Origin: a virus | Lineage: Duplodnaviria > Caudoviricetes | Virus record (IMG/VR): IMGVR_UViG_3300010354_000082 | Location: 814 to 64,813 of that record | DNA length: 64,000 nt | Strand: one strand, 5' to 3' | Shown: piece by piece, positions 12,620 through 44,607 of the stretch | How positions within the stretch are numbered: the first letter of the stretch is position 1 | How the letters are laid out: each line of letters opens with the position of its first letter | The notes under the pieces: generated by a model | Seen by the model: the letters and a program-made list of their open reading frames with translations, nothing else | Database searches by the model: none | What the model was told of the DNA's origin: nothing | Program-made: the position numbers and the translations under genes

Positions 12620-12640
12620 TACTTATTACGTTTACAATCT

Positions 12641-12674
12641 TGCCTCGCGTAAGGATGATGGTTTACGCGAGGCA
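12641..12674 (+). promoter_or_regulatory. 12-bp hairpin covering the SD of the downstream glycosyltransferase
   Basis: TGCCTCGCGTAA / TTACGCGAGGCA perfect inverted repeat with a 10-nt loop; the 3' arm contains GAGG 5 nt before TTG at 12678. Confidence 0.6.
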
Positions 12675-12677
12675 TCT

Positions 12678-20429: not shown

Positions 20430-21938
20430 TTGATAGTCATCACAACAGCGAGCGCAGACACTTACATCACCAACAAACTCATCGAGACGATCCCGGCCGT
20501 CTCTGGTAATGTCGGTCGTGCGGGGACTGTCGACATTTTCAAACTCTACGACGAGTCGAATTACGTCACGGGCGCTCTCGAACTCTCTCGCGCTCTCATC
20601 AAATTTGACCTCGGACAGGTCGCTCTCCTCGCCTCATCTTCCATCGACATCGCAGACCCATCTTTCAGGGCCGTCGTGAGAATGCGCAGCCTGTCGGTCG
20701 GTCAGCCCACGCCGAGCAACTTCACGCTCGACCTCTACCCGCTCGCGAATCCGTTCGAAGAGGGAATCGGAAGGGACATCATTTCCTTCGCAGACGTCGA
20801 CTACGCGAATTTCCTCCAGAGAATCTCAGGGTCATCGTGGAACGTCACGGGCGCCGCGGCGAGCGGCAGCCTGGGAGACTCCAACATCGACTACTTTGTG
20901 AGCGGAAACCTACAGGACGGCCAGGGTCTCACCTCCCTTCGCGTGAGTCAAGTTTTCCAGACGGGTCTCGAGGACCTCACGATGGACGTCACTCGCATCG
21001 TCTCTGCAACGATCGCGGGAGTCCTACCCGACAACGGATACAGGATCTCGTTCTCCGCAGCCCAAGAGTCCGACGGCGTGACAAGGTTCGTGAAGAGGTT
21101 CGCCTCGCGACACGTGAGAGACTTTTCGAACCGTCCGACTCTCACAATTTCCTACGACAACAGCGTGATCGACAATCACAGCTCGTCGTATTTCGACACT
21201 GCGAATTCTCTCGTGGTCCACAACACAGTGAGGGGACAGTATAGAAATTTCCTGTCAGGGACCGCGCTGACTCCCATCACGGGTCCGAACTGCGCCATTG
21301 TCAGGCTCGCGACGGGGTCCTACGTGAGCTACGTCACGGCGTCGCAGGTGGTGTGGGCGTCTCCAGTGACGGGAATCTACTCTGCGTCATTCACACTGCC
21401 AGCCGCGAGCACGGGCGTCATCACGGGCAGCGTCACCATCGCCGCTGCCCTCGCGGCGTCAGGGTCCATCACGCTCGACGAGCGCTGGACTTCGATCGAT
21501 GGGACGGTGACTTTCTTCTCCGGGTCCATCACGGTCCAGGGAGTGAGCGCCGCCCCAGCGACCGGTGGACCTCGAAAACTGCGTCCCTCTGTCTTCTCCA
21601 CCCCCGCGGGAGTCACTCGAGGAACGCCGGTCAGATTACGAGTCGCTTTCTTCGATGACTATGAGAATAACAAGGCGTCGAGGTTCCCAATAAGTCCCCG
21701 TCCGCTGCAGGTGAGCGAGGGGAGGCTGAGAATTCGCGACATCGTGACGGGCAGACTCCTGTTTGATTTCGATGATCCGGGTTCGAGACTCTCGTGCGAC
21801 ACAGTGTCCAACTACTTCGATATCCAGACTCACGGGTTCCCGCTGGGGATTCCCCTGTCTGTCGAATTCCAGTTTGACATTGACGGCCAGAGGGTGCAGC
21901 TGACGAACGTCCCGTACAGACTGACTGTGAGCGAGTAA
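20430..21938 (+). CDS. virion structural protein (baseplate-associated)
   Basis: ASADTYI, SRALIKFDL, MDVT.IV, NGYRISF, RPTLTISYD pattern of beta-sandwich phage baseplate proteins. Confidence 0.55.
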   Translation: MIVITTASADTYITNKLIETIPAVSGNVGRAGTVDIFKLYDESNYVTGALELSRALIKFDLGQVALLASSSIDIADPSFRAVVRMRSLSVGQPTPSNFTLDLYPLANPFEEGIGRDIISFADVDYANFLQRISGSSWNVTGAAASGSLGDSNIDYFVSGNLQDGQGLTSLRVSQVFQTGLEDLTMDVTRIVSATIAGVLPDNGYRISFSAAQESDGVTRFVKRFASRHVRDFSNRPTLTISYDNSVIDNHSSSYFDTANSLVVHNTVRGQYRNFLSGTALTPITGPNCAIVRLATGSYVSYVTASQVVWASPVTGIYSASFTLPAASTGVITGSVTIAAALAASGSITLDERWTSIDGTVTFFSGSITVQGVSAAPATGGPRKLRPSVFSTPAGVTRGTPVRLRVAFFDDYENNKASRFPISPRPLQVSEGRLRIRDIVTGRLLFDFDDPGSRLSCDTVSNYFDIQTHGFPLGIPLSVEFQFDIDGQRVQLTNVPYRLTVSE

Positions 21939-24900
21939 TGCCGAGAGTCAAGAAAAATATCGACTACACGAAGACAGACACGCTGCTCTCGCTACAGGGC
22001 AGCAGCACCTCTGCCGGTCTTACGTCCGCTGATGGCTACGATCAGGCGCCGAGCTCCGCGTCGTTCAGGTTCTCGCCTCCGGGGTCGCCCCTTCGGTCAA
22101 CGCAGCAGCTCCCCGTTGACTGGTCCAATTTTGCGAATCACACGTTCTTCAGCTCGGCTGTCGCAAACGTGAACGTTGCGTTCGATAAGATCATCAACAA
22201 TTTTCCCTTTGACGGCACATTCAGAGAGATAGAAGATTTTTTTGATACCCTGACTGGCTACGAAGCCTACGTGTTCAACCTCTTTCCAAAGTCTCTCAAC
22301 AGTCTTTCCTTTGTCGGCTCTTCTTACATCGATGTCACGGACTCTGCAGGCGCCCTGTATCCCGAGCTCTCGAGAAACATCACGGGCGCTTCGGTTCTTG
22401 ACCCAGGACTTCTGTCGCTCTCTCTGCAGACCAAACTCTTCGTTCCCAACAGCAACAATGACAATCAAATAATTGCCCAGAGAGTGTCGTCAGGAAACGG
22501 ATACACTCTTTTCGTGAGTCACTCAACAACCTCTAACGCTGAGGTGTATTTCAATTTCATTTCTGGATCGACGGCTCTATCCTGTTCTGCTTTCATAGAA
22601 AAGGGACAGTGGACCGACATAGCAGCCGTCATCAATCGTCGGCCCGGAATTCATCGATCACAGATCTATGTCAGCGGAACTCTTGCGGGAGAGTCGATGC
22701 CTGTCAGTGAGACGGGTCTCTTTACTGTCCTCTCTTCACCGCTCTACATCGGGTCGGGATCCAATCACGGGACGTTCACGTTCAACCAGGCGTTCAGCGG
22801 TTCACTCGATGACTTCAAAGTCTACGTCGGAAATAGGACACCTGATGAGATACGGGCGGCTGCAACGGGCCCCGCGGAGGCCAGCGAAAAACTTCGTCTC
22901 TACTACAAGTTCAACGAGCCAAGCGGATCCTACGACAGGAACTCATTCGTCATCGACTCATCAGGAAACGGTCTGCACTCGACAATCACGGGTTTCTCAT
23001 CAGCACTGAGAAATTCCAGCGCTCAGACCGGCGGTCCCTCAAATTTTGGCGAGAGACCTTCCTACAATCCTGTCCTTTTCCCGGACTACGCAGATCTCAT
23101 TACAATAAACTCGAATGCCCTAGAGTCTGCAAGAGACTATGACGCTAACAATCCCAACTACATAGTGAAACTCATTCCCGGTCACTATCTCGAACAGGAA
23201 CAGCGTGCAGTGGGACTTTCAACCGTTAACGGAGAGATCGGCAGGGACTTTTCCGATGGCGGAGACCTCCCACGCGCAACGCAGCTAGGCTCAGTCCAGC
23301 TGATAACTTCGCTTCTGCTCATCTGGGCAAAACAGTTCGATGAAATGAAAATGTTCATCGATCAGATGAGCAGACTGAACGCTGTCGGATACACTGAGAC
23401 GGGAGGGATAGCTGACACTTTCATTCCGTATCTGGCAAGAGAATTCGGAATAGAACTGCCCAGGATGTTCAGTTCTCCAACGTACTTACAATACATTCAC
23501 GGAGACAACATCGAAGCTGATACTTCTATCGGTACAAACCCACTCTACGAGCTCGAAGCAGATGTCTGGCGTCGCATACTCGCGTCCTTACCTACGATAA
23601 TAAAGAGCAAAGGAACGACAGACTCAGTGAAGAGTATCATCAGGTCTGTCGGGATTGATCCCGATGTGACTCTCAGGTTCAAGGAATACGGCGGCACTAG
23701 ATCGGGCTACATAACTGGCAGAAAATCTTCCAAGAAGCTGATGAGAACGCTCTCGAGCGGAAGCTTTCTCGTGTCATCACCATATCTCAGCGCTTCGAGA
23801 GTCGAACCTGGCGTCCCTCTGCCGTCTGGTGGTGCAACGCCCACGTCCAGCGACGGGCTGCTGACGAGCGGAAGTTTCACTTTTGAGTCCCACTACCTGT
23901 TGGACAGCTCGAATGTTGCCGACTCATCACTCGTAAGACTCGCGACTACCGGATCTTTCAACGACAAGCCCATACTCTTCAACGTGATCCTACAGCAATC
24001 GGGCACGATTGGCGGAGTCAACGGAAATATCACACTGAGCGGCTCATACTCGTCGGACACGTCAAATCCGCAGAGATTCTCTGTCGAGCTGTCGAATCTC
24101 CCAGTGTTCGATGGATACCCGTTCTATGTCTCTTTCGGTCGCAACAAGCTGTCTTCCGACACCAGCGAACTCTTTCTGAGATTCGGCAAGAGCATCGGTC
24201 AGAACCTCTTCGTCACCGAGTCGGTCTCTACGATAGTCATTCCGCCGTCATCTGACGTCCTGTCCAGCGTAGACTCTGTCAATAACGCAAGCGGAGCGTT
24301 CTTCGAGATCGGAAACTCGACGGTGACAACGAACGCGTCAAACAAATTTCTCAACTACTCCTCCCTTCCAGCGAGCTCGAGACTCGCAACTTTCGGCGGA
24401 AAAGTTTCGCAAGTGAGGTTCTGGTCAAAATACCTCTCCGGCAGCGAGTGGAATGAGCACGTGAAAAACCCGTTCAGCCTCGGTGTCAAGTCACCGTCTG
24501 TCAATTTCAACTTCGTGACGTCCGAGTCGGGATCGTTCGAGCGACTGCGGCTCGACTGCGGCTTCGATCAGCCCGTCACGGCATCCGACGGCAGCGGAAA
24601 CATCACTCTCACAGACTTCAGCCAGAATGGGTTTCACCTCTCTGGAACCGGATTCTCCCCGAGCTCGCCCGTCATCGGCGGCTTCGAGTTCCTGTCAAAC
24701 CCCATTGACCCATACTTTGACGAGTCGTCCACTGACCAGAAAGTTCGAGTGAAATCTTGGGAGACGGAGTCCAACGTCGAGAGATACGGTGGTCGACTCG
24801 GCGCGACATACACGATCGATCCTCACGAGAACTCTGTCGATGACAACAGGTTCGGCATAGAGATCAGCGTTGCACGAGCGCTGAACGAGGATATCGTGCT

Positions 24901-25285
24901 GATGCTCGGCGGTCACGAGCCCCTCGACAATCTCTACGGAAATTCGGCAGACGCTTTTTCGCTGGAATACACGGGCGAGAGACACCTGCGAGACATCTAC
25001 TTCAATCGTCTCGTGGACGCTCCCGTCTACAACAACGTCTTTCTCTTTGCAAAGTGGTTCGAACTCAACCTCGAGCCGCTCATCGCGCAGATGCTGCCGT
25101 TCAACACAAATTTTCTTGGCAGCAATTTCGTAATCGAGAGTCACGCTCTCGAGAGAAAGAAAATCAAGTACGGGTGGTCAGACATCTACCTCGGTCGCGA
25201 ACAGCGAAGCCTGTCTAGAGCCGAGTTTGAGATTATGGGCGATGGAACTTCTATCACACTTTCTGCAGAAATGAGGAGGGCATAG
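21938..25285 (+). CDS. large baseplate wedge protein with LamG domains and a P2 gpI/gp7-like segment
   Basis: LamG: WTDI..QIYVSG..LYIG..FSGSLDDFKVY..LYYKFNE..VIDSSGNGLH. Also IPYLAREFG...VWRRIL..LPTIIKSKGT..SVKSII. Confidence 0.7.
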   Translation: MPRVKKNIDYTKTDTLLSLQGSSTSAGLTSADGYDQAPSSASFRFSPPGSPLRSTQQLPVDWSNFANHTFFSSAVANVNVAFDKIINNFPFDGTFREIEDFFDTLTGYEAYVFNLFPKSLNSLSFVGSSYIDVTDSAGALYPELSRNITGASVLDPGLLSLSLQTKLFVPNSNNDNQIIAQRVSSGNGYTLFVSHSTTSNAEVYFNFISGSTALSCSAFIEKGQWTDIAAVINRRPGIHRSQIYVSGTLAGESMPVSETGLFTVLSSPLYIGSGSNHGTFTFNQAFSGSLDDFKVYVGNRTPDEIRAAATGPAEASEKLRLYYKFNEPSGSYDRNSFVIDSSGNGLHSTITGFSSALRNSSAQTGGPSNFGERPSYNPVLFPDYADLITINSNALESARDYDANNPNYIVKLIPGHYLEQEQRAVGLSTVNGEIGRDFSDGGDLPRATQLGSVQLITSLLLIWAKQFDEMKMFIDQMSRLNAVGYTETGGIADTFIPYLAREFGIELPRMFSSPTYLQYIHGDNIEADTSIGTNPLYELEADVWRRILASLPTIIKSKGTTDSVKSIIRSVGIDPDVTLRFKEYGGTRSGYITGRKSSKKLMRTLSSGSFLVSSPYLSASRVEPGVPLPSGGATPTSSDGLLTSGSFTFESHYLLDSSNVADSSLVRLATTGSFNDKPILFNVILQQSGTIGGVNGNITLSGSYSSDTSNPQRFSVELSNLPVFDGYPFYVSFGRNKLSSDTSELFLRFGKSIGQNLFVTESVSTIVIPPSSDVLSSVDSVNNASGAFFEIGNSTVTTNASNKFLNYSSLPASSRLATFGGKVSQVRFWSKYLSGSEWNEHVKNPFSLGVKSPSVNFNFVTSESGSFERLRLDCGFDQPVTASDGSGNITLTDFSQNGFHLSGTGFSPSSPVIGGFEFLSNPIDPYFDESSTDQKVRVKSWETESNVERYGGRLGATYTIDPHENSVDDNRFGIEISVARALNEDIVLMLGGHEPLDNLYGNSADAFSLEYTGERHLRDIYFNRLVDAPVYNNVFLFAKWFELNLEPLIAQMLPFNTNFLGSNFVIESHALERKKIKYGWSDIYLGREQRSLSRAEFEIMGDGTSITLSAEMRRA

Positions 25286-26118: not shown

Positions 26119-26119
26119 A

Positions 26120-29100
26120 ATGGGAAAATTTGCAGGCGAGCTCGAACCCCTTCTCGATCTCAGGGAGCCCTTTGCAGTAGACCTGCGAGGCAAGATCTAC
26201 AACCTGAGCTCGAGCCTTGTCCTGCAGCAGAGTCTACTCTACCCTTCCACGAGCCTCGCAGATGGGACAGCGTTCACTGGTGGGACAGGAACTGCCGCAA
26301 CATTCGATCCAGGCAGCACGGGACTCACTCCCACTCCGAAGGGTCTTCTCTGCGGGACAACGAGCACAAAGTTCACGCTGCCGTCACCCATTGCCGACTG
26401 CCTGAGCTTCGCTGCTCCCGAGCTCACGCTCTCTGTCTGGGTGAGTGGGTCTCTCCACTCTACGAAGGTCGGCGATCTTCACGAGAAGAGTTTCATCCAG
26501 TCATCTGGGTCTCTCGGCGTGCAGTTTCTCATCGGCAACTGGGACACCTCCGCAACACCGACAGCGTCGCATTTCCTCGCCGCAGTCTACAGCAAGCCCT
26601 CGACAGCAGCCGCGATGAACGTTGTCGCGTCGACTCACAGGACTGCGGGCAAGACGGGTCCCGCAGTGTGGGGATCGAACACGAGAATGGGGTACCACGG
26701 CAGGACCGTGCAGGTCACCACGCCGCTGCCAGACAACAACAACCCGTTCGACGCTTCGAGACCCGGCTGGCACCACGTCGTCTATGTCCAGCGCGCCGCC
26801 CGCTCACCCGTCATACCGCCGACGCAGTTCCTCTTCAACCAGGCGACATCTCCCCTGCTGAACACCTCACAGACGGGAGACGAGGGTCGCTGCGAGATGT
26901 GGTTGGACGGCGAGCTCGTCTACACGACACCGACCTGGGGTCCGTTTCCTGAGGGTCACTCGCCATATTTCTACGAGGACGGGCTCGCCGGACTCAACGG
27001 CTCGACAACATCGAGATTCCTGGAGACAACGACGGACTCGAGCCTGTCCAACGCAACGACGGTCGCAAACAGAGTCCTCCGCCAGGCCGCGCCGTCTGCG
27101 TTCCTCTCCGGCAGCTCGGCAAACGGCGACGCGACAGCCCAGCTCGCAGTCTGGCGCCGAGCTCTCAGCGGAGAGGAGATCACTGCGATCTATCGCGGGA
27201 CCACCCAGGGAGTCTACACGACAGTCGGAACCTCATTCAGCTCGGCTCCCAAGCGCCTCATCGGACAGGATCCGGGCAGTCCGCTCTCGACTGCGAGGAA
27301 CGTGGGCTTCAGCGACGGCGCTGGGACTGGAAAGTCTCCAGAATTTCGTGACCTCTCGAGCGGACTCGAGAGACTTGCGGGATCGACCTATCAGGGAAAT
27401 TTCCACTACAGTCCCTTTGGGACATCGACGCCCCTCTCTCTCACATCGGCAGTGATGACAGACGGCAGCACGATCGTCGGGTCACCCGCGAAGGTCTCGA
27501 CCTTCAGGGACGTGAGCGATCCCACTCAGGGAATTGACGACCCTGAGTTTGTCATTCCGTCCGGATCCGCAGTCATCAGGATCTCCATTCCGAATACCGA
27601 CCCAAACGTTGCAGCGGGTCGCGCCCACAACTCTGGGACAGTCGACACATTTAGCTCGCAGGTGGGACTCGATGCTACGGGATCGATGTGTATTGGCACG
27701 GGATTCCTCTACTACAGCCCGAAGCTCAAGAGGTGGGTCGAGAAGAGGGCTGACGGCGCAACGTCCTTCACATCCGACCGTCGCCTCGTGGTCGACTCAA
27801 CGTCGGCGTCAAATTTCATCTTCCAGGTCTCTTCGAGCCGAGACACAGAAGTTGGAACCTACGGACGAAGGACAATGGTGAAGGTGGGCGGGACTCTCTC
27901 ACAGTTCTCGTGGTCTCCGCAGTTCGGATACTTCTTCAACCACGTCGAGCACCTGCAGCAGGTGGGATACAGTCGGATCGGTTGGCCCACGAGCTTCTTT
28001 GGCGCCCCAAACGCCCCCAAGTATCACGCCTACGATCACGAGACCATAAAACTCAGCGACTACATCGACAGACCCTTCCTGCTCAAGAGGGTCGAACTTC
28101 GAGTTCCCGTAAAGTCAGAGAGGTATTTCGGCGCCAACGATTCCTACGACAACGGCGACGCGGCCTACAATCAGCAGGTGACCAACAAGAAGGACATCGA
28201 CAATTACGTCTTCTTCCTCTATCGCCAGCGCCGAGTCTCGAGAGATCGCGACGGCTATCTGGACAGGGGGACTTCGAAGCGCTACCTCATCGCTTCGGCA
28301 TCTGTCTGCTACTACAACTCTGCGTCTTTCGGCGGCGCCTTCAAGGACGGGTTCTTCACGCAGTCGAACTGGACATCGACTGACGCCTGGGTCCAAGCGC
28401 TCAGCGGGGCACTTGCGAGACCCGGAGACACGCTGGACTATTTCAGCCAGTCTCTCACGCAGATCTCGGGCAACAATCCCATCCTCCACACGCCGCAGTA
28501 CGCGAAAGAGTGGGGCGAGGACAGGTTCACGGGAGCAAACTACCAGATTTCAGAACTGTTTGCAGAGACAACGACGCTCAACCTCACGATGTTTCCGACG
28601 GTGGTTCCTGACTGTCAGGTGTCTCCGAGTCTCATACCGTTCACCGGCTCAGGAATCACTCTTGACGCCAATGCATTCAGCGCCCGCGAGGGCGGCAGTG
28701 TAGTGGCGGGTTCGATAATTGGAATTTCGGGCGGTATGTACGTGACATCAGGAACGCGATCATCTCCGTCATCAACAAGCCCTGCGCCCTATCTTGCGCT
28801 AGTATCTCAGCGCTGGTTCGGCGGCAGTCGACCCGCGCAGATCGTATCATCGGAAGCAGTTGATCCATATGACACTGTCAGACTTCCGTCCAACAATAAC
28901 AACGACGCAAAGGTCAATGGCAGCATGGATGCGAATGTCCACAATACGACAGCCTGGGTCGATGATGTGAAACTTGAGACCAATAGCGAAGGTTTTACGA
29001 GATACGGCGTGAGACTCAATCGCGGCTCATTCCAGTCCCAGGGTTTGAGTCTCGTTCCCCTGGGATACTCTGGTTCGGCAGATCCGACGAGATTTATGAC

Positions 29101-30687: not shown

Positions 30688-30736
30688 TTCACATCCCGCG
30701 CCTTTGTAGTACAATGGCAAGGGACTAGTTATCAGC

Positions 30737-33912: not shown

Positions 33913-36900
33913 ATGGCTGTCAGCAAAGTAACAGTTGGATCTCTAATAGCAGTCCAGTCCGACAAGCAGATAATTCAGCAGCTTCCTCTGGAAAGTTTAC
34001 CAGAAAAATCATTATCCACTGCGCTTCCGCCGAACGTTCCCATTCAAGCAGACTCATACTTCGCTAGAGAATCTATCGGTTCTGTAGCTACGGAGTCGAG
34101 CTTTGGGATAACTTTAAGAGACACGACTAGCATTCCTCTACAACCAGCAGTCAATTCTGTCGGCAAAGATTTCTCGCTTTCCGTTGAAAGACCACACATT
34201 CTCGTGACGGCCGATATCACACCTTCTTTTTCTGCAGAAGACAGAGCCAGTGCTGTCGAGTCTATAGAACAAAGTCTTGATGTTCTCAGGATAGATCAAG
34301 ATCTAAATGACGCAGACTATGCATATCTAATGGGTAAAATAGAGAGTGAGAATGAAGGCACAATTGCAGATTTGAAAGACGCGCTTTCAAAGACCCAAGA
34401 AAATGTTGAGAAATTTCTTGACTCAATCTCTAGAATGTCAGCAGCAGGGTCTGAGTTCTCTTATAGAATGGATTTTACGAAGAATTGGGAAAATTTTGTA
34501 GACAACGTAAATGAAAAAAGAAAGAGATACTCAAGTAGATTCGACAGTCAGCAAGAAGCAATTTCTTTCGACAAGGAAAAAGATACCAGCAGCTCGATAA
34601 TTTTGAAAGTGCAGAATGGTCTGAATGCTATTGATACAACAAGACCAGAAGCCGAAGTTATTCAACGATTGATCAACGAAGGAACGGTTCATTCAACGTT
34701 GACAGTTACTACAGTAGCGGGCTCTAGTTACGATTCTTTGAATTCTCTGCAAAAATTTGCCGTGTGCTGTGAAGTCATTTCGAAATTGTTCTCATCAGAA
34801 TTCACACGCCTAAAATTCGGTGAGAGATCTTCACGAAATGTGACCCTTCCAATAGCTGCAGATTCTCGAAATCGTAAATTGCTGTTTGAAAGCAAGAACT
34901 TTCTACTTGATGAAAACTCTGGCCCTTTATCATCGGGACGCGCTTTGTTGAACGTCGCGAATAGACACTCCACACTAGATCTGCAGGAAGCGTTAGCATC
35001 ATCCATCAGGGATTCCATCGATAGCTACGAGTCTTCTTCGTCATTGAATGAGACGATCAACAATTACGATTCCATTGCTTCTCCAATACTCGAGTCAGCA
35101 ATTCGTAGCTCAACAAACAGTGCTTCATCTTTGAAAAGAATATCCGAAATCTATGATTCGATAGACGAAATTACAAGACACAAGCTTGCAACGGGTTTCC
35201 CAAGAGAGTCTTGCACGTCAATTGATCTCTTCCTGGAGTTTCTTTCATTTTTGAGTGATTGCTTTCCTTCATATCGGGAAAGCAATTACGATACATCATT
35301 CGAAGAATATGAGATGATCAATGCTTGCCTGATTTCTCTTGGGACAAAAAGGAGCGGAGCGGACGAACAAATATCAGGACTCGTCAGAGGAATTTTGCTT
35401 GCCTCTGCTCTCGATGATGAGTATTCATGGGCAGAGCCCGTTGCTTTTGATACGGTCACAAATATTGAAACTGTGACATCTGTGGATGGAGAAGAAAAAA
35501 GATCGCAAACAGCAACTGGTCAAGTAACTTTTCAAGGCGGTAATCCCAGCGTTTCAAAGAGCTTCTTTTACGGTCCACTGTATGGAGAGGAAAAGAGAAG
35601 AAAATTGATTCCACCAATGTCCAGAGCTTTTGCATCTGAATGGCTCAAAAACGCAGACGAGGCCGCGATAGACGGCGACGGTTACTTTCCAAGATTTTTT
35701 ACTTACGGGATATCAGAAAGAACAGATTTCGATGAGATAAGAAGAAGCAAGCAGAGTAATACTTCCGTGACAGTCGAAGTAAGAACTTCGCGTGGAGGGT
35801 TGAGCTATGAGCTGCCGGGAAACAGCAGAACATTTTTCAACAAAAACTTGCCATATGATGAAGCTAGAATTCTTTACGTTGACAGAGGGCGTAGAGAAGG
35901 AGAGTTAGACGAAACCAGAAGCGTCACTGTTGCTCCGCTCGACAAGCTCGAGCTCGCAATGAAAGTCTTCGGAAAGTCCAGAAAAAGCTTGCTGTCAACG
36001 TCAATTAAAGACTTGTACTCAAGGATCGTAAAAAAATTCAACGAAGCTTTCAAACTGCAAGATCAACCGAGCTCTTTCTTAGAACCGCAGACAAAAAATG
36101 TCATATCAAAAAACTCGGTCTACGATCTCATTTACGAAGCAATCGCAAACCTGGTGTTGTATTTTGTGGATCCTTCAACGACTTTAGACGCATATCAAGG
36201 AACAACTACACGTTCGAGCGAATCTGAAATCACAGCAAAAATTTACTACCACCCAGGTTACTATCGGGTCGTAAGAGAGTCGACAGTCTCGAACCCAGAC
36301 GCAACAGACTACTACGCTTGGTGGGAAGCAAAAGATTCGTTGTGGTATGCGGAGCAACTGTCAAGCATTGCTGGAGATGTGTCGTCCAGACTTAGCGATC
36401 TGGAATCATCCAGAACTCGCACTTTTGGAGAAACATCATTCAAGACTCAAATTCCGTTCGTGAACGACCTGACCAACAAAACAGTAGTCGATACTCAGTC
36501 GAAATACACACCAGTCGCGATACTTCAACTGGTCAGCGAAATCGCCAATTCATCAGCTTCAATTCTTGAATCTACTATCAATAGAGAGCTAAAAGTTCTG
36601 AAAGAAACTGATATCGCGCTAACGCAAGAAGAAAAAATCGACTCTCTAAAGAGTCTGACGCCAGCTTCAGTCAGCGCCTCACGCCTGAAGTACCACATGT
36701 CCAGAAAATTGACGATGAGAGAATTCGAAAATCGTATTGAGAAAAAGTCTGTCCTGCTGGACATATCGGCTGCAAAATGGTTTTTTAATTGCTTTCAAGA
36801 GACTACCGATGTTTCCAGAGTAATTGCTGTCGGCTTACCCCATGGATTCTATGACAAGATTTCAAGACAGGCACTGGAAGTCAATTCTTTTGATCTGACT

Positions 36901-38106
36901 TTGAAAAACCCTGACAAGACTAGAAATTATCGCTACTACAAAGTCTCTGCAGATGTCCAGTCGATGTTAAGTGAAGCGAACACTAGAACGACTGGAATGC
37001 TAGCAGCATTTCATCCGTACATTCACATCGAACAGTACGATCTCTTCACTGATGAAGATTTTGTAGACTTCGGACAGCCAGGCTATGAACTTTTGGTCGT
37101 GCTAAGACTCGGTAGAAGGTTCAACATCTACCATTACGACGTCTTGAATGGAAAGTGGAAACTTTCGACTTTGCCGGAGCTATCGGATTTTTTGTCATCC
37201 ATCGGAATAGTGAATGCCGAAGAGCAGCAAAAAATACTGTATTGTCATGTAATGGACTCTGTTCTAAGGTCGACATTCAGGATAACATCTGGTATGGAAA
37301 TTTCTGCAGATTCTTTGGGAACTCCATTAAGAGAAGGCAGCAGAAGCGATATGAACGTAGCTTTGCGAATAATGCAATCTGGATCAGGGACTCTGATACC
37401 CAGAGGAAACATGAAAGCAGCAGATTTTTTGACTCGGAATTTGAACGGAAATTACGGAATAATTCCATACTCAAGACTTAGAGGAGAGTCGATGAATTCG
37501 ACGAATCCTTCCGATCACAGTCTTCTTGTTAGATTCTTGAAAACAAGAATCTTCACGAAGTCTTCTCTTCCAAGAGAAGTCATAGTTCCTTCCGCTTTCG
37601 AAAGAGTCTACTTTTTCAACGTCTTTACGTTGATCCCAATAGACGCAGCTATTCAAATTTCGTTCGAGGCAGAGGTCCCGAGAGAAGCTGATGTGGGAAC
37701 AGGAAGCAGAAGGAATAGAAATGGAAATAGACTTTCGCAAGAGTCTTTCAGTGACTTGAGCATTGAGACAGAGTCAACTGCTACCGAAGAGTTGACCAGA
37801 AGACAGCTGGAAATAGAAAAAATTGAGTCTGAAATTGAAGCAGGAAACTTTACAGGTGGACGTGGCTCTCAACCGGGTCCACGAACCCCCATGGGTCTTC
37901 CACGTCCACGAATTCCCAGCGACTTCGTGGAAGACGATCCACGCAATGTCGGTTCAGGTCGCAGCGACCTGAACATTCAGGAATTTATCAGCGACGGCGG
38001 CGCGGCAGGCAATAGCCTCACGAATAGAGATCGAAATAGCTCACGTGGTAGCGGTTCAGCATCCGCCGGCGGAGGGCCGAGCAATCCTGGAACTGGCAGA
38101 ATATGA
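33913..38106 (+). CDS. very large hypothetical protein (1397 aa)
   Basis: Long ORF, no recognisable motif, AT-richer, low-complexity G/S/R C-tail. Confidence 0.6.
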   Translation: MAVSKVTVGSLIAVQSDKQIIQQLPLESLPEKSLSTALPPNVPIQADSYFARESIGSVATESSFGITLRDTTSIPLQPAVNSVGKDFSLSVERPHILVTADITPSFSAEDRASAVESIEQSLDVLRIDQDLNDADYAYLMGKIESENEGTIADLKDALSKTQENVEKFLDSISRMSAAGSEFSYRMDFTKNWENFVDNVNEKRKRYSSRFDSQQEAISFDKEKDTSSSIILKVQNGLNAIDTTRPEAEVIQRLINEGTVHSTLTVTTVAGSSYDSLNSLQKFAVCCEVISKLFSSEFTRLKFGERSSRNVTLPIAADSRNRKLLFESKNFLLDENSGPLSSGRALLNVANRHSTLDLQEALASSIRDSIDSYESSSSLNETINNYDSIASPILESAIRSSTNSASSLKRISEIYDSIDEITRHKLATGFPRESCTSIDLFLEFLSFLSDCFPSYRESNYDTSFEEYEMINACLISLGTKRSGADEQISGLVRGILLASALDDEYSWAEPVAFDTVTNIETVTSVDGEEKRSQTATGQVTFQGGNPSVSKSFFYGPLYGEEKRRKLIPPMSRAFASEWLKNADEAAIDGDGYFPRFFTYGISERTDFDEIRRSKQSNTSVTVEVRTSRGGLSYELPGNSRTFFNKNLPYDEARILYVDRGRREGELDETRSVTVAPLDKLELAMKVFGKSRKSLLSTSIKDLYSRIVKKFNEAFKLQDQPSSFLEPQTKNVISKNSVYDLIYEAIANLVLYFVDPSTTLDAYQGTTTRSSESEITAKIYYHPGYYRVVRESTVSNPDATDYYAWWEAKDSLWYAEQLSSIAGDVSSRLSDLESSRTRTFGETSFKTQIPFVNDLTNKTVVDTQSKYTPVAILQLVSEIANSSASILESTINRELKVLKETDIALTQEEKIDSLKSLTPASVSASRLKYHMSRKLTMREFENRIEKKSVLLDISAAKWFFNCFQETTDVSRVIAVGLPHGFYDKISRQALEVNSFDLTLKNPDKTRNYRYYKVSADVQSMLSEANTRTTGMLAAFHPYIHIEQYDLFTDEDFVDFGQPGYELLVVLRLGRRFNIYHYDVLNGKWKLSTLPELSDFLSSIGIVNAEEQQKILYCHVMDSVLRSTFRITSGMEISADSLGTPLREGSRSDMNVALRIMQSGSGTLIPRGNMKAADFLTRNLNGNYGIIPYSRLRGESMNSTNPSDHSLLVRFLKTRIFTKSSLPREVIVPSAFERVYFFNVFTLIPIDAAIQISFEAEVPREADVGTGSRRNRNGNRLSQESFSDLSIETESTATEELTRRQLEIEKIESEIEAGNFTGGRGSQPGPRTPMGLPRPRIPSDFVEDDPRNVGSGRSDLNIQEFISDGGAAGNSLTNRDRNSSRGSGSASAGGGPSNPGTGRI

Positions 38107-38118
38107 TCGGAGAATGAA

Positions 38119-39786
38119 ATGACATCAATCAAGTCCAACAAATCGATTATCAATTCGCTATTTTCGTCGCCTTCAAATCTCAACGTAAGATTTGACTACT
38201 TGAAATATTCTGCTGACGAGACAATTAGCGAATTTGCCGAAGGGCTCAGAAAAGTGAGCTTGTCATTCGGAATTCCGCCAGCGATGAATGTTGACTCTAC
38301 CGAAAGATGGAAAGAATTTTTTCAAGGCACACCAATTCATAGAATCGGTGATTTATCTTCAAATTTGTTCACGTGTCTCTCGGTGAAAGACACAGCTCTT
38401 CTTAAAAGAGCGCAAGATTCTTTTTTGAGATCTTGCAAACTTAGATCGATTGCAGGCAGTCTCAGTGATAAGTCATATGCTCTCTCAGCAGAACTAAGTC
38501 TCGAACGCAATGGACCGTCTTCTGAAGAAATACAAGCGATTGCATCCAGCGATCAATCTCGAGGGTTGATCTACTATAGTGTTGATAGAGTCATTCAATC
38601 GACAAGATACTCTAAGGCAAACGGAATACATGTCAGCGCTACGATAAGCAACAAAGTCATTCATGAAATTGCTTACAAAACAGAAGAGATAAACTACAAA
38701 ATCTCTCCTACTTCGATAGGTTTGCTGGCAAACGAATCTACTTTACAGAAACAGTCTGAGGAGAGAAGCAGGGGCAGCTCTTACTTTCCAGGAGAAATAG
38801 AGACGTATTTCGAACCAACAGAAAGAGCTGCTCCAGAAGAAATAACTTTGATCTGCTTCTTGATAGAGAGGTCTGAAAATCTGACTAGCGGAGAGAAGAA
38901 CAAAGTTCTTTTCTATTCGCCTCCGACTGTAGGGCTATTCGTCGATACGAGCGTAAGATACGGCTCATCGTACACTTACACCGTAAGCGCAGTCTACTCT
39001 GCAAAGGTAGAATCTATTTCACCGTTGAGTGACTCTTTAGAAGAGTATGAGATTCTTGTAAGTTCTCTTCCTTCCAATGTCGCTACCATTTTCACGATTG
39101 AGAAAGTGCCGCCCCCGCCACCAGTAGATATCAGATTTAGATTTGACCAGACTAAAGGCGAATTTTCTGTAAGCTGGGAGTTCCCGGTCAATAGACCACA
39201 GGACATTACAAGATTTCAAGTCTTCAGGAGAAGAGACGAAAACGAACCGTTCTTGCTTTTGAAAGAGTTTGACTTCGACGTCAGCGAGAGAACTTTTTAC
39301 AGACCCGACGCGCCGCTTCAAGTGAATGTTGCTAGATCAGAATATCCAGTTCGTCGATTTATCGATAGGGACTTCGGTAGATCTTCGAGATACATCTACG
39401 CAATCTGCAGCGTAGATGCTCACGGATACGTTTCTAATTACTCTTCGCAGTATGAGGTTTCTTTTGACGTGAGAAATCGAGGACTAAGAGTCAAATGTCT
39501 CTCTCCGTCAGGCGCTCCGCGACCGTATCCCAACATGTATTTCGATACTATCACGCCCCTTGTCGAAGACTCGATAACCCGAGGTAATATTTCATCAGTA
39601 GATTTTGTTTTTGACCCCGAATACCTCACTGTGCTAAAGAGAATGAGAAGCATGAATTTTTTGAAGTATTCTGACGAAGCAAAATACTACATGAGCGTCC
39701 TAGATACTACAAGAGCGGAACAGATCTCTGTTCCTATCGAAATCGTAGAAGACAGAATAGACCCGCCATCTGCGGACGCCATTTGA
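38119..39786 (+). CDS. FN3-domain hypothetical virion protein
   Basis: FVDTSVRYGSSYTYTV; PPPPVDIRF...VSWEFP...RFQVFRR...FIDRDF...YIYAICSVDAHG..SNYS. Confidence 0.6.
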   Translation: MTSIKSNKSIINSLFSSPSNLNVRFDYLKYSADETISEFAEGLRKVSLSFGIPPAMNVDSTERWKEFFQGTPIHRIGDLSSNLFTCLSVKDTALLKRAQDSFLRSCKLRSIAGSLSDKSYALSAELSLERNGPSSEEIQAIASSDQSRGLIYYSVDRVIQSTRYSKANGIHVSATISNKVIHEIAYKTEEINYKISPTSIGLLANESTLQKQSEERSRGSSYFPGEIETYFEPTERAAPEEITLICFLIERSENLTSGEKNKVLFYSPPTVGLFVDTSVRYGSSYTYTVSAVYSAKVESISPLSDSLEEYEILVSSLPSNVATIFTIEKVPPPPPVDIRFRFDQTKGEFSVSWEFPVNRPQDITRFQVFRRRDENEPFLLLKEFDFDVSERTFYRPDAPLQVNVARSEYPVRRFIDRDFGRSSRYIYAICSVDAHGYVSNYSSQYEVSFDVRNRGLRVKCLSPSGAPRPYPNMYFDTITPLVEDSITRGNISSVDFVFDPEYLTVLKRMRSMNFLKYSDEAKYYMSVLDTTRAEQISVPIEIVEDRIDPPSADAI

Positions 39787-39843
39787 GCCAAGACTCGATT
39801 TACAATCTCTACGCGAGTTGAAAAGTAGAGGATAGGAAAGTCA

Positions 39844-40551: not shown

Positions 40552-40566
40552 TCGGAGTCATAGCAG

Positions 40567-41847
40567 ATGGCAATTTTCAAGGATCTCGACATCAGCACAG
40601 ACATCACGACTGCGAGAACACAGCTCGCGCAGCTCGTGGACATCGTGCAGCAGGACATTTCCGGATCTAGCACGAGAAAGCAGTACGCGATCTTTGTCAC
40701 TGCGTCATCCGACTCGGTCCAGACTTACTCGGTGACGTCATCGCTCTTCCAGACTGTCTACGATCAGGACTACACGTTGCAGGTCTCTAACGCGATGTTC
40801 GACCTCACCGTGGGACTCTTCTACAGCGGCTCGACAGTCCTCACTGCGTCATCGGGCATCGACTCCAACGGCAAGCGTCTCTTCCCGTCGACGTCTCTGA
40901 TGATGCGCGAGAAGACCGAGATGTATCGCCTCTTTGCTGGCAAGCTGCTCGGTGACTCCGACTCCTCTTTCTTTGCTCCCGTCTCATCGACAACGACGAC
41001 TGATAGGATCGACGAGGCGCTCTTCATCTCTTTCAAGAGACTCTTCTCTCGCGACGGAATCCGACGCAACACTTTTGCGATGCGCTTCTATTCTTCCGGT
41101 ACTCTGGACGGTAGCCCCGACGCCACGGCATACGAAAAGCTGCAAACCAACGGCTACACGGGCAGCAACCTCACCAGCACGTCAATTTCCGGCAGCTCGA
41201 TCTTCACGGACTCCACGGAGGCGTCCAACCTGCAGACTCTTTTCGGCGGCAGAGTGGGATCGATCGTCAATGCTGCAAACACCGACCAGAAGGTCGGGCT
41301 CCTGTGGTACGATGCGGGCGTCGCAGTCCTCGATCTCAAGAAGGTCTGTTGGTCGACGCAGCACGTCTCGGGTGTCATCAGCGCAGTGACGGGCGCGACA
41401 GCTCCTGCGCTGAGCAACCAGACAATCATCGGTAGCGGAGCGTTCCCGTCTTCCAATCCTTCTGCGACTCTCATTCCCGACCTGCTCGTTTCCTCTTCGA
41501 TGGATGATCTCGCGAACTACTTTGCAACGACCCGATTCCAGAGCGGCTCTCTCACGGGCATCACGTTTCAGAACGAGACTTCCATCAACAGCACGCTCTT
41601 CTTCTGCAGGGCAAACGCTGACGAGTTCAACTACTCGAACAACCCGACATACTTCAACGATGCTGGCGAGCTCGTAGTGATGAAAGCCCAGAGCACGTCT
41701 ACGAATAATCAAGTTCCGTTCACGTATCCGACGACCATCGGTCTCTACGATGAGCAGAACAGGCTTCTCGCTGTTGCCAAGTTCTCTAGACCCATTGAAA
41801 AGAACGCTGAGAAGGACCTCACGGTACGCGTAAGGCTCGACTTCTGA
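40567..41847 (+). CDS. virion baseplate/tail protein
   Basis: C-terminal FFCRA...EFNYSNNPT...YPTTIGLYD..NRLLAVAKFSRPIEK...VRVRLDF. Confidence 0.65.
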   Translation: MAIFKDLDISTDITTARTQLAQLVDIVQQDISGSSTRKQYAIFVTASSDSVQTYSVTSSLFQTVYDQDYTLQVSNAMFDLTVGLFYSGSTVLTASSGIDSNGKRLFPSTSLMMREKTEMYRLFAGKLLGDSDSSFFAPVSSTTTTDRIDEALFISFKRLFSRDGIRRNTFAMRFYSSGTLDGSPDATAYEKLQTNGYTGSNLTSTSISGSSIFTDSTEASNLQTLFGGRVGSIVNAANTDQKVGLLWYDAGVAVLDLKKVCWSTQHVSGVISAVTGATAPALSNQTIIGSGAFPSSNPSATLIPDLLVSSSMDDLANYFATTRFQSGSLTGITFQNETSINSTLFFCRANADEFNYSNNPTYFNDAGELVVMKAQSTSTNNQVPFTYPTTIGLYDEQNRLLAVAKFSRPIEKNAEKDLTVRVRLDF

Positions 41848-41856
41848 GGGGGCCTC

Positions 41857-44607
41857 GTGTCACTGCTCAAGGCTTCAACTGGCCTTTTCGAAAATTACAC
41901 GTTCATTGCGCGACCTGAGCGGGAGTTCTCGTCATCATCCAGCGGCGTGACAGGGGCTATCCGCCTCTTTCCACAGGCGAGCCCATCTGAAAAGATGGAT
42001 CCCGAGGCGATGACGAGAGTGGTACAGAAGCTCAGTGGGTCTTCCCTGGGTGGTATTGCCGCTTTTGATGAATCAAGAGCAATCTTTACTACGCTCAATC
42101 TTGTGACACGTTCCGATGGTGAACCTGAGTATTTCGTTTCTGTTCGAGATTTCGTGTCTGATCCTCGACAGCGTAAGACTCTCGAGATCGTAAGATCGAC
42201 GCCCCCGCTTTTCCTTACGAGCTCTAATGACATCACCACGGGAACTCTCGAATTCAACACGCTGCGACGTGTCCTGTTCCCACACTACGCTACAGCGTAT
42301 CCCTCTGCCTACTGGGGATACGCGAATTACCTCTGCCTCAACTTCATCTCCGGATCGACGTTCAGCAACAATGCCGCGCTCATCTACGCTAATCCGACGG
42401 GCTCTGACGGCACGTCTCTCCTGACACCTTCAGGGGCGTTCACACTAGAGACATACATCAAGCCCACTGCTAGGGTTTCCGGAACTTATCACGCCGGTAC
42501 GATCTTTCACGTATCATCGTCATTCGCTCTTTCGCTCGTGAGTGGCTCCAGTGTCGATCCCTACGGTCGACCCGCGTCATTCAGACTTATGCTGCAGCTG
42601 AGTCACAGCGCCGACATTCCACCGAGCTCGGTCGATCTCACAGTAGCGAACAACGCGAGAGTCTTTCCACAAGATCTCATCTTCCTCAGCGATGAGTCTA
42701 TCACGTTCAACGGCTGGCACCACGCCGCTGTCAGGTGGGGCGGATCGTCTGTCGACTCCGGCACCGGGTCTTTCTTCATCGATGGCGTGAGATCCGGAGA
42801 TTTCAGCATTCCCTCGGCTTCAGTGACTCGAACAGATTACTCTCCTGAGAATTCGAACGCCCTCTTCATCGGAAATTATTATGAGGGCTCGAACAATTCT
42901 TCGAATGCGATCAGAGGATTCTTCGACACGACCACCGCAGGCATTGAGGGATTCACAGCGCCCTTCACCTCGCCTCCCACATTTCCGACTCACACGATGC
43001 GCCACGGCCTCGGCGCAGAGATTCACGAGACCAGGTTCTGGGAGAGCTATCGTTCTGCAGAGCAGATAGTCTCGGGAACGCTCACGGGATACCCGTCAGG
43101 ATCCGGACCACTCTTCTACCTCGGTCCACACTTCGTTCACGAGTCTCCTGATCGTGACGTTCTGCTGACGCCGTTCTTGGCCGTAATTTCTTCTTCGATA
43201 AATACGCCATTCGTCCGACAGCTTTCGCTCGGTTTCGGCGGACACGTCATCAATACTGAGAATCATCTCAGAGAATTGGTCACGGGATACTATCCGCGCC
43301 ACCTGAACATGACGGCGTCTACAGCCGCAGGCGCACCTGCTGGCTTGACGGTCAACGACATACTCTTCGCAACGAGCTCGGTAGTTCGCAAAAACCTTCT
43401 CATTATGCCCTGCGACAATGGAAAATTCACACCGCACTGGGAGAATCTCTTCACTTCTTCGCTGACACCTCACTATAGGTTTGACAATCCTGGATTTGTC
43501 GATGTGTCTAGACTCTCCACGGGAAGCGGGACCGTGAGCGCCGGAGACAGATTCCTTCTTGAGGGTGAATTCTTCTTTCGAGCGACAGTAGACTTGACGC
43601 ACAATTTTGCGGGAACCTCTTTTTATGCAGGAAAAGAATTTACGCTTGAGTCAACAACCGGAAACAAAAAAACTTATGTCTTTGACAACGGATCGGTCCC
43701 CTATGTTACTGGACAAGTTGTCGGTTTTCTAAGAAAAATAATAATCCAGATTGGCTCTGGAGTGTCGACTGTCGATGCTATAGCGGAAGAAACCTTAAAT
43801 GCAATAACTGGTGATACAGGACAACCCACTGAGTTTATCGTTGTCAGGACTGGCGGCAAAGTGACGATAATACAGGCACGTCCTGGACCCGGCGGTAATA
43901 CCATAATCGAAAATAATTTCCCAGAATTATTTAGTCCGCTAACTCTTAGTTCTAATTCATTCACGGGTGGAGAATTGATCGACCCGTCTCCTGATTTTGC
44001 GTTTTCTAGTCATACTGGCGACAACGCGTCCGAACTTCCCGCTTGCATCCTCACTGCAAACGACTCGTCCTACCTCGCCACGCTCTTCGACGCTTCGAAC
44101 CTCTTCTACGGCAGCAAGATCCACCCGGGAACTTTCGAGATTGTCGATCCGTCATTCACGGGATCTGCAGGGCTCCTCTCTGTTCGTCTCCGCGACAACG
44201 GAATGGGCGGCCTCTACCGCGCCGACGCGACGACTCCCCACGCAAAGTGGAACTCTGTCGGGACGCTCCTCTACGAAGAGGGACTCGCCGTCGTCACGAG
44301 CCCGTATCTCGGTGACCTCTACGGCAAGGACAACTTCAGCGTGAAATTCCGCGGCGAGCAGCCCATCACAGTCCTCAGCACGAACGTCACGGTCCCAGCC
44401 TTCCAGATCAACTCGAGTTCCCTGCCGTCCTACCTGCCGCTCACGGCCTCCAACTACGCCAACGAGGACGGCAACCCGATGACATACATCACTCGAGTGA
44501 ACCTGCACGACGAGAACCTGAACATCGTCGGGAAGGCAGAGCTCGCGCAGCCGATCGCCAAGCGACTCTCCGACAAGTTTGTCATCAAGGTGAAATTTGA
44601 CTTCTGA
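41857..44607 (+). CDS. LamG-domain virion baseplate/tail protein
   Basis: FTLETYIKP, WHHAAVRW, FFIDG, LFIGN; C-terminus YITRVNLHDENLNIVGKAELAQPIAK...IKVKFDF parallels the upstream gene. Confidence 0.65.
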   Translation: MSLLKASTGLFENYTFIARPEREFSSSSSGVTGAIRLFPQASPSEKMDPEAMTRVVQKLSGSSLGGIAAFDESRAIFTTLNLVTRSDGEPEYFVSVRDFVSDPRQRKTLEIVRSTPPLFLTSSNDITTGTLEFNTLRRVLFPHYATAYPSAYWGYANYLCLNFISGSTFSNNAALIYANPTGSDGTSLLTPSGAFTLETYIKPTARVSGTYHAGTIFHVSSSFALSLVSGSSVDPYGRPASFRLMLQLSHSADIPPSSVDLTVANNARVFPQDLIFLSDESITFNGWHHAAVRWGGSSVDSGTGSFFIDGVRSGDFSIPSASVTRTDYSPENSNALFIGNYYEGSNNSSNAIRGFFDTTTAGIEGFTAPFTSPPTFPTHTMRHGLGAEIHETRFWESYRSAEQIVSGTLTGYPSGSGPLFYLGPHFVHESPDRDVLLTPFLAVISSSINTPFVRQLSLGFGGHVINTENHLRELVTGYYPRHLNMTASTAAGAPAGLTVNDILFATSSVVRKNLLIMPCDNGKFTPHWENLFTSSLTPHYRFDNPGFVDVSRLSTGSGTVSAGDRFLLEGEFFFRATVDLTHNFAGTSFYAGKEFTLESTTGNKKTYVFDNGSVPYVTGQVVGFLRKIIIQIGSGVSTVDAIAEETLNAITGDTGQPTEFIVVRTGGKVTIIQARPGPGGNTIIENNFPELFSPLTLSSNSFTGGELIDPSPDFAFSSHTGDNASELPACILTANDSSYLATLFDASNLFYGSKIHPGTFEIVDPSFTGSAGLLSVRLRDNGMGGLYRADATTPHAKWNSVGTLLYEEGLAVVTSPYLGDLYGKDNFSVKFRGEQPITVLSTNVTVPAFQINSSSLPSYLPLTASNYANEDGNPMTYITRVNLHDENLNIVGKAELAQPIAKRLSDKFVIKVKFDF

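Follow-up and report, generated by a model that had tools for sequence, protein, structure and literature searches.

Domains of the LamG_3, pentraxin and concanavalin A-like (ConA-like) type (PF13385) have glycines that are conserved in PTX3 and in the S-layer-domain protein 4qvs, and in relatives of this kind the residues flanking them are His, Met, Arg, Asn and Glu. The two-residue hairpin turn of type II′ places Gly at i+1 and Ser, Thr or Asn at i+2, and Gly-Ser is the natural counterpart of D-Pro-Ser. According to a passage in a review of miniprotein design, D-Pro-Ser promotes the type II′ turn that favors β-hairpins (PMC10125317). Among protein glycosylation systems, the BAHT-family enzymes Aah and TibC O-heptosylate AIDA-I and TibA in the cytoplasm, at many Ser/Thr residues of these β-rich surface proteins. 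Phage-encoded glycosyltransferases (GTs) are reportedly credited, by Freeman et al. 2023 (Cell Host Microbe), with the glycosylation of mycobacteriophage virion proteins, and we know of no Ser-Gly-Ser determinant in that system. Extensive virion glycosylation is reported for mycobacteriophages in work cited in a passage of PMC12582341, and phages are not mentioned in the review PMC11139210. Here these systems are compared with a Ser/Thr-Gly-Ser/Thr motif, [ST]G[ST] in one-letter code, in structural proteins encoded by a 64,000-nucleotide stretch of a virus of the Caudoviricetes (IMG/VR record IMGVR_UViG_3300010354_000082, positions 814 to 64,813), which is called the window below.

An earlier note on this DNA described a broader motif, x-[S/T]-[G/A/S]-[S/T/N/A], as pervasive in the structural proteins and as a possible glycosylation sequon. 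The enrichment is real but narrower than that description, and it is a conserved fold-level feature whose use in glycosylation is putative. On balance, the excess is probably a lineage-specific, Gly-centered micro-motif of β-turns and strand junctions in all-β virion domains, inherited and conserved, with Ser and Thr as the preferred flanks.

The Ser/Thr-Gly-Ser/Thr excess

Pfam and PHROGs matches identify the window as DNA of a distant T4-type myophage. All its large open reading frames (ORFs) lie on the + strand, the hallmark genes of the T4-like structural module (gp23, gp20, gp25 and gp6) form a single co-oriented block, and the synteny is kept in 34 relatives. Twelve ORFs at 20430–44607 come after gp25 and gp6; none of the 12 has a PHROGs match, two have Laminin_G_3 matches in Pfam, and their position and fold suggest that they encode outer baseplate or fiber proteins. 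The structural genes are as follows (lengths in amino acids, aa):

1..627, + strand: C-terminal fragment of a fiber or virion protein (phrog_6002, virion structural protein)
18105-18587, + strand: gp25 (GPW_gp25)
18587-20422, + strand: gp6-type wedge protein (PHROG match)
20430..21938, + strand: 502-aa protein, several β-sandwich domains
21938..25285, + strand: 1115-aa protein, LamG/pentraxin-type jelly rolls and two helical segments
26120..29812, + strand: 1230-aa structural protein
29812..31627, + strand: 291-aa and 296-aa proteins
31624..39786, + strand: 762-, 1397- and 555-aa Ser-rich proteins, in a stretch of low G+C content (GC)
40567..41847, + strand: 426-aa structural protein
41857..44607, + strand: 916-aa LamG_3 protein
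49861-51441, + strand: large terminase (Terminase_6N)
51477-53390, + strand: gp20 portal (Portal_T4)
54218-54841, + strand: gp21-type protease (Peptidase_S77)
58549-60435, + strand: gp23 major capsid protein (Pfam Gp23, 256 bits)

The motif of the earlier note, taken as [ST][GAS][STNA], was counted in each of the 54 ORFs against 2000 mono-residue shuffles per protein. All 11 examples quoted from the 502-aa protein are present, and in the five proteins that the note named the motif is 1.5–2.2-fold over the shuffled null:

502 aa: 20 observed against 9.1 expected, z 3.7
1115 aa: 33 against 20.1, z 3.0
1230 aa: 34 against 22.8, z 2.5
426 aa: 18 against 10.2, z 2.7
916 aa: 33 against 17.0, z 4.3, the largest three-residue excess

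When a hydrophobic residue is required before the motif, the counts are 17 against 3.8 in the 502-aa protein (z 7.4, the largest excess of that form) and 11 against 4.1 in the 426-aa protein. The word pervasive is apt for these five of the 12 ORFs at 20430–44607 but not for the remainder, since two have a weak excess (291 aa, 9 against 5.6; 296 aa, 6 against 2.7) and five are at or under expectation (277 aa, 1 against 3.8; 762 aa, 10 against 11.6; 1397 aa, 19 against 20.4; 555 aa, 3 against 6.5; 235 aa, 5 against 5.4). The fiber fragment at 1–627, in which the motif had also been claimed, has no significant excess (7 against 4.3, z 1.4; 5 against 1.5 with a hydrophobic residue in front). The claim for the capsid insertion is upheld: the capsid protein has 18 copies against 9.7, 15 of the 18 fall within the insertion at aa 61–360, and [ST]G[ST] occurs there 6 times against 1.85. 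This insertion of ~300 residues is rich in Gly, Ser and Thr and is probably an outward-facing domain; part of it also occurs in phage Mel-JY01, where the capsid alignment covers 96% of the query. The sparseness noted in enzymes, terminase and portal is a low density with counts at expectation (0.78–1.18-fold), and it is therefore mostly a matter of composition. The terminase has 5 copies against 3.6 and the portal 6 against 3.6.

The motif as first written is too broad, and the real signal is narrower and centered on Gly. In a scan of all tripeptides over the five named proteins, SGS comes first (26 against 5.2, z 9.3) and SGT second among the frequent tripeptides (12 against 3.8); [ST]G[ST] as a whole reaches 51 against 15.7 (3.25-fold), and the part of the broader motif centered on Ala or Ser reaches 70 against 55.0 (1.27-fold). 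The observed/expected ratios of single tripeptides are 4.96 for SGS, 3.17 for SGT, 2.91 for TGS, 2.64 for SGN, 1.3 for NGS, 0.69 for TGT, 0.5 for SGG and 0.4 for SGD. [ST]G[ST] lies above composition in the presumed targets and not in the enzymes (1 against 4.6, or 0.22-fold, in the sugar-cluster enzymes of the window; 3 against 3.0 in its DNA and packaging enzymes), yet five of the 12 ORFs of the interval are unenriched. The flanks are hydrophobic (fractions of 0.54 at −1, 0.46 at −2 and 0.48 at +3, with a background of 0.31), and charged residues at −1 and +3 amount to 0.03 and 0.07 against a background of 0.17. The mirror image of the broader motif is about as frequent as the forward form (forward/reverse counts of 20/19, 33/25, 34/32, 18/18 and 33/33 in the five proteins), and the pattern is therefore not directional.

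An excess of this kind might be a by-product of composition or local heterogeneity, with Ser, Thr and Gly concentrated in loops and no selection on the tripeptide. The proteins are indeed rich in Ser (11–14%) and also in Thr and Gly, the Ala/Ser-centered part of the motif is near expectation, and the gap in raw density between enzymes and structural proteins is largely compositional. However, the excess persists when residues are shuffled inside blocks of 40, 20 or 10 residues (for [ST]G[STNA] with 10-residue blocks, 11 against 3.1 in the 502-aa protein and 16 against 6.0 in the 916-aa protein), so that local composition is not the cause. The equally loop-prone SGG, SGD and NGS are unenriched (0.5-, 0.4- and 1.3-fold), as are the equally Ser-rich neighbors of 762, 1397 and 555 aa, and the sites are conserved in families of ~40% mean identity. 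The composition-only and local-heterogeneity nulls are rejected on the block shuffles, the tripeptide specificity and the site conservation, and a by-product of this sort is very improbable.

The statement that the copies are dispersed, are not DNA repeats and reflect the protein level is borne out, the 45 SGS of the window being written with 40 distinct 9-mers. The interval 20430–44607 has no tandem repeats, and its direct repeats, only five families of 24–37 nt, are at chance level; together with the diversity of the 9-mers, these results rule out a DNA-level cause. In the five non-coding frames SGS occurs 18–29 times against 14–20 expected. Paralogy was rejected as the source, since in an all-against-all blastp of the 54 ORFs the 426- and 916-aa proteins alone align, at their C-termini (aa 332–426 against aa 829–916, E 3e-5). 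Avoidance of the deamidation-prone Asn-Gly and Asp-Gly as the reason for Ser was rejected as well, with NG at 0.90-fold and DG at 1.25-fold.

Conservation and structural setting of the sites

At E ≤ 0.001 the family of the 502-aa protein counts at least 747 members, and the best 120 are all ~500 aa long; their median enrichment of the motif is 2.05-fold (5th percentile 1.58), and SGS has a mean of 3.13 copies against 0.66. Of the 20 sites in the 502-aa protein, nine persist in 80% or more of 119 homologues, and the per-site fractions total ~12 of a mean of 18.8 copies per homologue, where 9.2 are expected. In the 1115-aa family, 11 of the 33 sites recur in 83% or more of 53 homologues (median identity 39%), and in the 916-aa family nine of the 33 do so in 84% or more of 119 homologues. 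Gly is the best conserved residue at the sites (53 of 53 and 119 of 119 homologues, for example). Ser and Thr replace each other on both flanks of the near-invariant Gly in the 1115-aa family, as at the site S44/T8-G53-S30/T20, and a site of the 916-aa family reads S92/T27-G119-S114/T5. The number of conserved sites per protein (~9–11) is about equal to the whole excess, which is therefore kept up by purifying selection at fixed places rather than by turnover of weak sites. The sites extend through a large clade of T4-like phages, with hundreds of uncultured relatives that retain them. Family-wide ratios of observed to expected [ST]G[ST], taken over 80 IMG/VR loci, are as follows:

502-aa family: 4.84
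1115-aa family: 4.30
1230-aa family: 2.72 (five homologues, 55 against 20.2)
296-aa family: 2.65 (14 relatives, 23 against 8.7)
40 large downstream proteins without a BLAST match to the window: 2.87 (305 against 106.4)
first GT4 family: 0.59
gp6 family: 0.40
gp25 family: 0.22

No cultured member of the window's clade was found, the 502-aa protein having no tblastn match among 50,697 phage records. Seven contigs encoding the 502-aa family (L092–L098) sit in metagenome-assembled genomes of seven unrelated labels, namely Gammaproteobacteria, Halobacteriovorax, Rhodospirillales, Gemmatimonadetes, Flavobacteriales, Methylococcaceae and an archaeon. They are most likely mis-binned phage contigs, and host inference from them was set aside as uninformative because the labels are unrelated.

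The AlphaFold2 model of the 502-aa protein (predicted local distance difference test score, pLDDT, 82.7) is a chain of β-sandwich domains for which Foldseek finds chains of Ig/macroglobulin-type domains, and its 20 sites are distributed over strand interiors and strand starts, loops, two-residue hairpins (at 295 and 332) and, in one case, a helix. In the model of the 1115-aa protein (mean pLDDT 71.7), all 13 [ST]G[ST] fall in the β-rich segments 161–360 and 581–940, none of the motif sites starts in the 395 helical residues (361–580 and 941–1115), and most of the conserved sites stand at strand-turn-strand junctions, with DSSP patterns of the type EEEEE|E--|EEEEE at sites 209, 185 and 246. Exposed turns had been expected on AlphaFold models; the DSSP strings place the sites mostly at strand ends and turns and not in cores, but some are within strands and one is in a helix. 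Sites 209, 185 and 246 of the 1115-aa protein and 295 and 332 of the 502-aa protein resemble the type II′ hairpin in their succession of strand, two coil residues and strand, with Gly first in the loop; the motif sites as a whole differ from it in that most are not clean two-residue hairpins and Asn/Asp variants are unenriched. In the 1115-aa model a helical segment of ~220 residues (aa 361–580) follows the LamG-type N-terminal signature FNEPSGSY..DSSGNG (aa 325–345) and precedes the β-rich segment of aa 581–940, and it could be an insertion splitting a jelly-roll domain.

Laminin_G_3 (PF13385, cut-off 27.6) matches the 1115-aa protein with 56.7 bits and the 916-aa protein with 27.8 bits, barely above the cut-off, and has no match in the 502-, 1230- and 426-aa proteins. 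Foldseek relates the 1115-aa model with probability 1.00 to BACOVA_03559, PAPP-A, neurexin LNS, laminin LG and PTX3, over ~200–260 columns. In HMMER alignments to solved structures, 'afSGSlddfkvy' aligns with 'afSGRltgfniw' of the PTX3 pentraxin and 'ylHGMiddfrif' of 4qvs, and 'yvSGT' with 'wvNGE' and 'yiNGE'; some of the motif glycines are therefore structural positions common to the whole superfamily. The phage clade departs from these relatives in having both flanks conserved as Ser/Thr, and from LamG proteins at large in that the same tripeptide is enriched in the 502-, 1230- and 426-aa proteins, which have no LamG match. On these alignments, the Ser/Thr flanks are a lineage habit added to generic structural glycines.

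Under the explanation by a β-turn and strand-junction micro-motif, the pattern hydrophobic-[S/T]-G-[S/T]-hydrophobic, mostly S-G-S, would mark the ends and starts of strands, as well as two-residue hairpins, in the β-sandwich domains and LamG/pentraxin jelly rolls of peripheral baseplate and fiber proteins. Gly would supply the positive-phi turn position and the flanking hydroxyls would cap the turn, so that the motif would be a fold-stabilizing signature kept by descent, with Ser where other LamG proteins have Asp, Asn or other residues. Read as a feature of the fold, the motif alone would not be evidence of a sequon.

Several observations weigh against this explanation. Clean two-residue hairpins make up only five of the 53 motif sites of the two models, and among the remaining sites some lie inside strands, some in loops and one in a helix. 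Next to Gly, Ser and Thr are enriched (1.50 and 1.39) and Asp and Asn are not (1.08 and 0.93), and ratios of 1.3 for NGS, 0.4 for SGD, 0.5 for SGG and 0.7 for TGT, against 5.0 for SGS, indicate a specificity beyond turn propensity. In the 1115- and 916-aa families, Asp or Asn hardly ever takes the place of the hydroxyl residue at the first position, a requirement that would suit an acceptor and goes beyond that of a cap. In the 916-aa family, [ST]G[ST] is 4.70-fold enriched in the conserved N-terminal part and still 3.17-fold in the variable C-terminal part, and an excess is also present in the 40 non-homologous, fast-evolving distal proteins of relatives. None of 15 T4 baseplate and fiber proteins tested, which are β-rich, exceeds z 1.5 for [ST]G[STNA]. 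Generic turn rules give no full account of Ser over Asn/Asp or of the retained first hydroxyl, and these two features leave room for a function of the hydroxyl.

Such a function could lie in contacts of lectin-type domains with host polysaccharides, in interfaces at the baseplate periphery or in a different modification of Ser. The 1115- and 916-aa proteins have lectin folds of the ConA-like/LamG type, conservation extends to the hydroxyls on both flanks, beyond the need of a single acceptor, and the motif is common to non-homologous outer proteins. However, about ten sites in each protein, distributed among several domains and for the most part set between hydrophobic strand residues, do not look like a binding site, and no result indicates a specific ligand or modification. 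We judge a role of this kind rather unlikely.

Glycosyltransferases and the acceptor question

The sugar and glycosyltransferase genes of the window lie upstream of the baseplate genes:

742..11832, + strand: nucleotide-sugar cluster (Pfam, PHROGs, NCBIfam)
11825-12619, + strand: PD-(D/E)XK nuclease
12471..15067, + strand: two adjacent GT4-type (GT-B) glycosyltransferase genes (Glycos_transf_1, 45.2 and 27.5 bits)

The cluster encodes a GT2, a methyltransferase, a NeuD/PglB/VioB-type acetyltransferase, a DegT/LegC-type aminotransferase, a fucose-synthase-like reductase, a GDP-mannose 4,6-dehydratase (Gmd) and a UDP-galactopyranose (UDP-Galp) mutase. With its listed start, the first GT4 ORF shares 149 nt with the nuclease gene and encodes 483 aa, compared with 412–443 aa in relatives; the true start is probably ~60 codons downstream. 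Sequence matches of the GT4 pair in the PDB are TreT, chlorovirus B736L, BshA and MshA.

Could the motif be a determinant for O-glycosylation acceptors on the folded outer proteins of the virion? The Ser/Thr that begins a strand-loop-strand element would receive a sugar in the cytoplasm, through the action of the phage's conserved GT4 pair or of its GT2, with donors from the phage's own cluster (GDP-6-deoxyhexose or amino-sugar, UDP-galactofuranose); we consider this proposal unlikely. In its favor, the excess is real, hydroxyl-specific and conserved, and it is confined to peripheral proteins and the capsid insertion (gp6 0.40-fold, gp25 0.22-fold, sugar-cluster proteins 0.22-fold). Gmd (450.5 bits, cut-off 415) and UDP-Galp mutase (373.7 bits, cut-off 303.75) both pass the NCBIfam cut-offs. 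Of the relatives for which 8.5 kb or more of upstream DNA is available, all 34 carry the two GT4 genes, just upstream of the baseplate genes; the nuclease was found in 27 and the 119-aa protein in 22, the gene order being nuclease, GT4, GT4, 240-aa, 119-aa, 466-aa, gp25, gp6, 502-aa homologue and 1115-aa homologue. As is reported for the mycobacteriophages, GT genes thus lie near structural genes. Aah and TibC provide an analogous precedent, which the strand-loop-strand geometry of many motif sites in the models would fit, but the window encodes generic GT4 and GT2 enzymes and no BAHT-type enzyme, and its presumed substrates, known here from sequence and models, are β-sandwiches and not β-helices. 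No window GT matches a known protein-O-glycosyltransferase family (BAHT, GtfA/B, Maf, HMW1C, PglL and others) in Pfam or NCBIfam; the only matches are generic GT4 and GT2 ones, all under the NCBIfam cut-offs. The lack of direction in the motif, the fixed sites without turnover and the identity of some sites with canonical LamG/pentraxin fold glycines also speak against acceptor sites. Of the refuting outcomes named in the earlier note, the computable ones did not occur: composition alone leaves the excess unexplained, and in the two models the sites are mostly at strand ends and turns. Nor does any result lend positive support to glycosylation.

The comparison with other phages bears on the same proposal. 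Among cultured phages, Microcystis phage Mel-JY01 has the nearest capsid protein (35% identity), with Flavobacterium phage immuto and Rhodothermus phage RM378 next, and homologues of the first GT4, found by tblastn in only seven phage records (four immuto isolates, Mel-JY01, LR756508 and RM378), occur in the same set of phages. The GT genes come after an annotated PD-(D/E)XK nuclease in immuto and Mel-JY01; in RM378 the gene before them is annotated 'similar to DNA polymerase I'. A trio of nuclease or exonuclease-like gene and two GT4-type genes is found at window 11825-15067, L088 4009-7928, L087 376-3933 and L089 8212-11893, and it appears to be a core feature of a deep T4-like branch comprising the window's clade, immuto, Mel-JY01 and RM378. 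In a panel of phages, ORFs of at least 300 aa gave the following numbers of enriched ORFs (p < 0.01), total observed/expected ratios and matches to GT1 or GT2 families:

Window: 6/26, 2.19, GT match
immuto (91 kb read): 6/32, 2.41, GT match
RM378 (whole genome): 1/50, 2.03 and diffuse, GT match from the tblastn match to the first GT4 only
Mel-JY01 (125 kb read): 0/33, 1.07, GT match
T4 (40 kb of structural genes): 0/14, 0.79, no GT match
S-SKS1 (41 kb read): 0/13, 1.40

Immuto has the nuclease-GT-GT trio, a sugar cluster and the same style of motif ('flTGSlst', 'stSGSlgv', 'lfSGSfia'; 13 against 2.4 in its protein hyp373), and T4 has neither GTs nor motif, as acceptor sites would predict. Mel-JY01, however, has GT homologues and yet no enriched ORF among 33, with a total of 1.07-fold. 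The trio of RM378 stands among DNA-metabolism genes (ribonucleotide reductase, Erf, helicase), so that DNA or another target, such as the host surface, fits as well as virion proteins; a NAR 2026 paper on glycosylated 5-hydroxycytosine gave no passage tying such GT4 pairs to DNA. All phages with both features belong to one lineage, and the co-occurrence is not independent. Within the clade, the GT4 pair is kept in 34 of 34 relatives and the motif in 79 of 79 scored loci (at least 2.7-fold in homologues of the 502- and 1115-aa proteins), so that no relative among these has lost either and there is no contrast for a correlation of GT and motif. Among huge uncultured phages, the 50-kb head-module stretches of LR756508 (GT4a homologue) and LR756511 (no match) stand at 1.58- and 0.64-fold, on counts that are too small. 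The panel neither supports nor refutes a link between GTs and motif. Its positive phages all come from a single lineage, and Mel-JY01 runs counter to such a link. A generic property of phage fibers was considered as well and is unsupported by the 15 T4 proteins and by the 1348- and 2255-aa proteins of Mel-JY01.

To our knowledge, no acceptor determinant for virion glycosylation has been described in Gram-negative or aquatic phages, and literature searches on phage virion glycosylation yielded none. By analogy with the recognition of strand-loop-strand elements by Aah and TibC, hairpin tips with the pattern hydrophobic-[S/T]-G-[S/T]-hydrophobic might serve a deep T4-like branch (the window's clade, immuto and perhaps RM378) as a structural acceptor code for the cytoplasmic sugar-coating of outer baseplate proteins, fibers and the capsid insertion, a scheme that we find unlikely. 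The corresponding division of labor, in which the core nuclease-linked GT4 pair would be the enzymes and the variable sugar island would provide the donors (6-deoxy and amino sugars, galactofuranose), seems improbable to a similar degree.

Other features of the window concern its gene content. UDP-galactopyranose mutase is encoded at 10735-11832 in the window and in RM378 (L091 13986-15137), and its gene is directly upstream of the nuclease in seven related loci, which hints that galactofuranose is a recurrent sugar of the lineage. Two stretches, 31624-39786 and 4001-8000, have a GC of 0.42–0.44, compared with 0.52–0.61 elsewhere in the window. The first, at 0.43–0.44 with 0.52–0.57 on both flanks, covers the Ser-rich 762-, 1397- and 555-aa proteins, the second falls within the sugar cluster, and both look like separately acquired modules. 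Encoded downstream of the GT4 pair and ahead of the baseplate genes, the 240-aa protein (15351-16073) occurs in all 34 of the 34 relatives. Its sigma-70/ECF-type match in NCBIfam is weak (21.7 bits, under the cut-off), and it may act as a late sigma factor, as T4 gp55 does. A 1048-aa ORF (46107-49253) joins an SbcD-like phosphoesterase N-terminal part to an SbcC/Rad50-like ATPase, whereas gp47 and gp46 are separate genes in T4-type phages such as S-SKS1.

Significance

Because immuto is cultured and has both the GT trio and the motif style, the question of glycosylation is directly testable. If the sites are glycosylated, a large and abundant aquatic group of T4-like phages would coat its host-recognition apparatus with self-made glycans at predictable sites, which would bear on host range, on the grazing and decay of virions and on recognition by antibodies and lectins. 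If the motif is only a turn signature, it would serve as a warning that Ser/Thr-Gly 'sequons' in phage structural proteins can be features of the fold, and the lineage would provide an unusually clean case of a lineage-specific sequence style in β-sandwich virion proteins.

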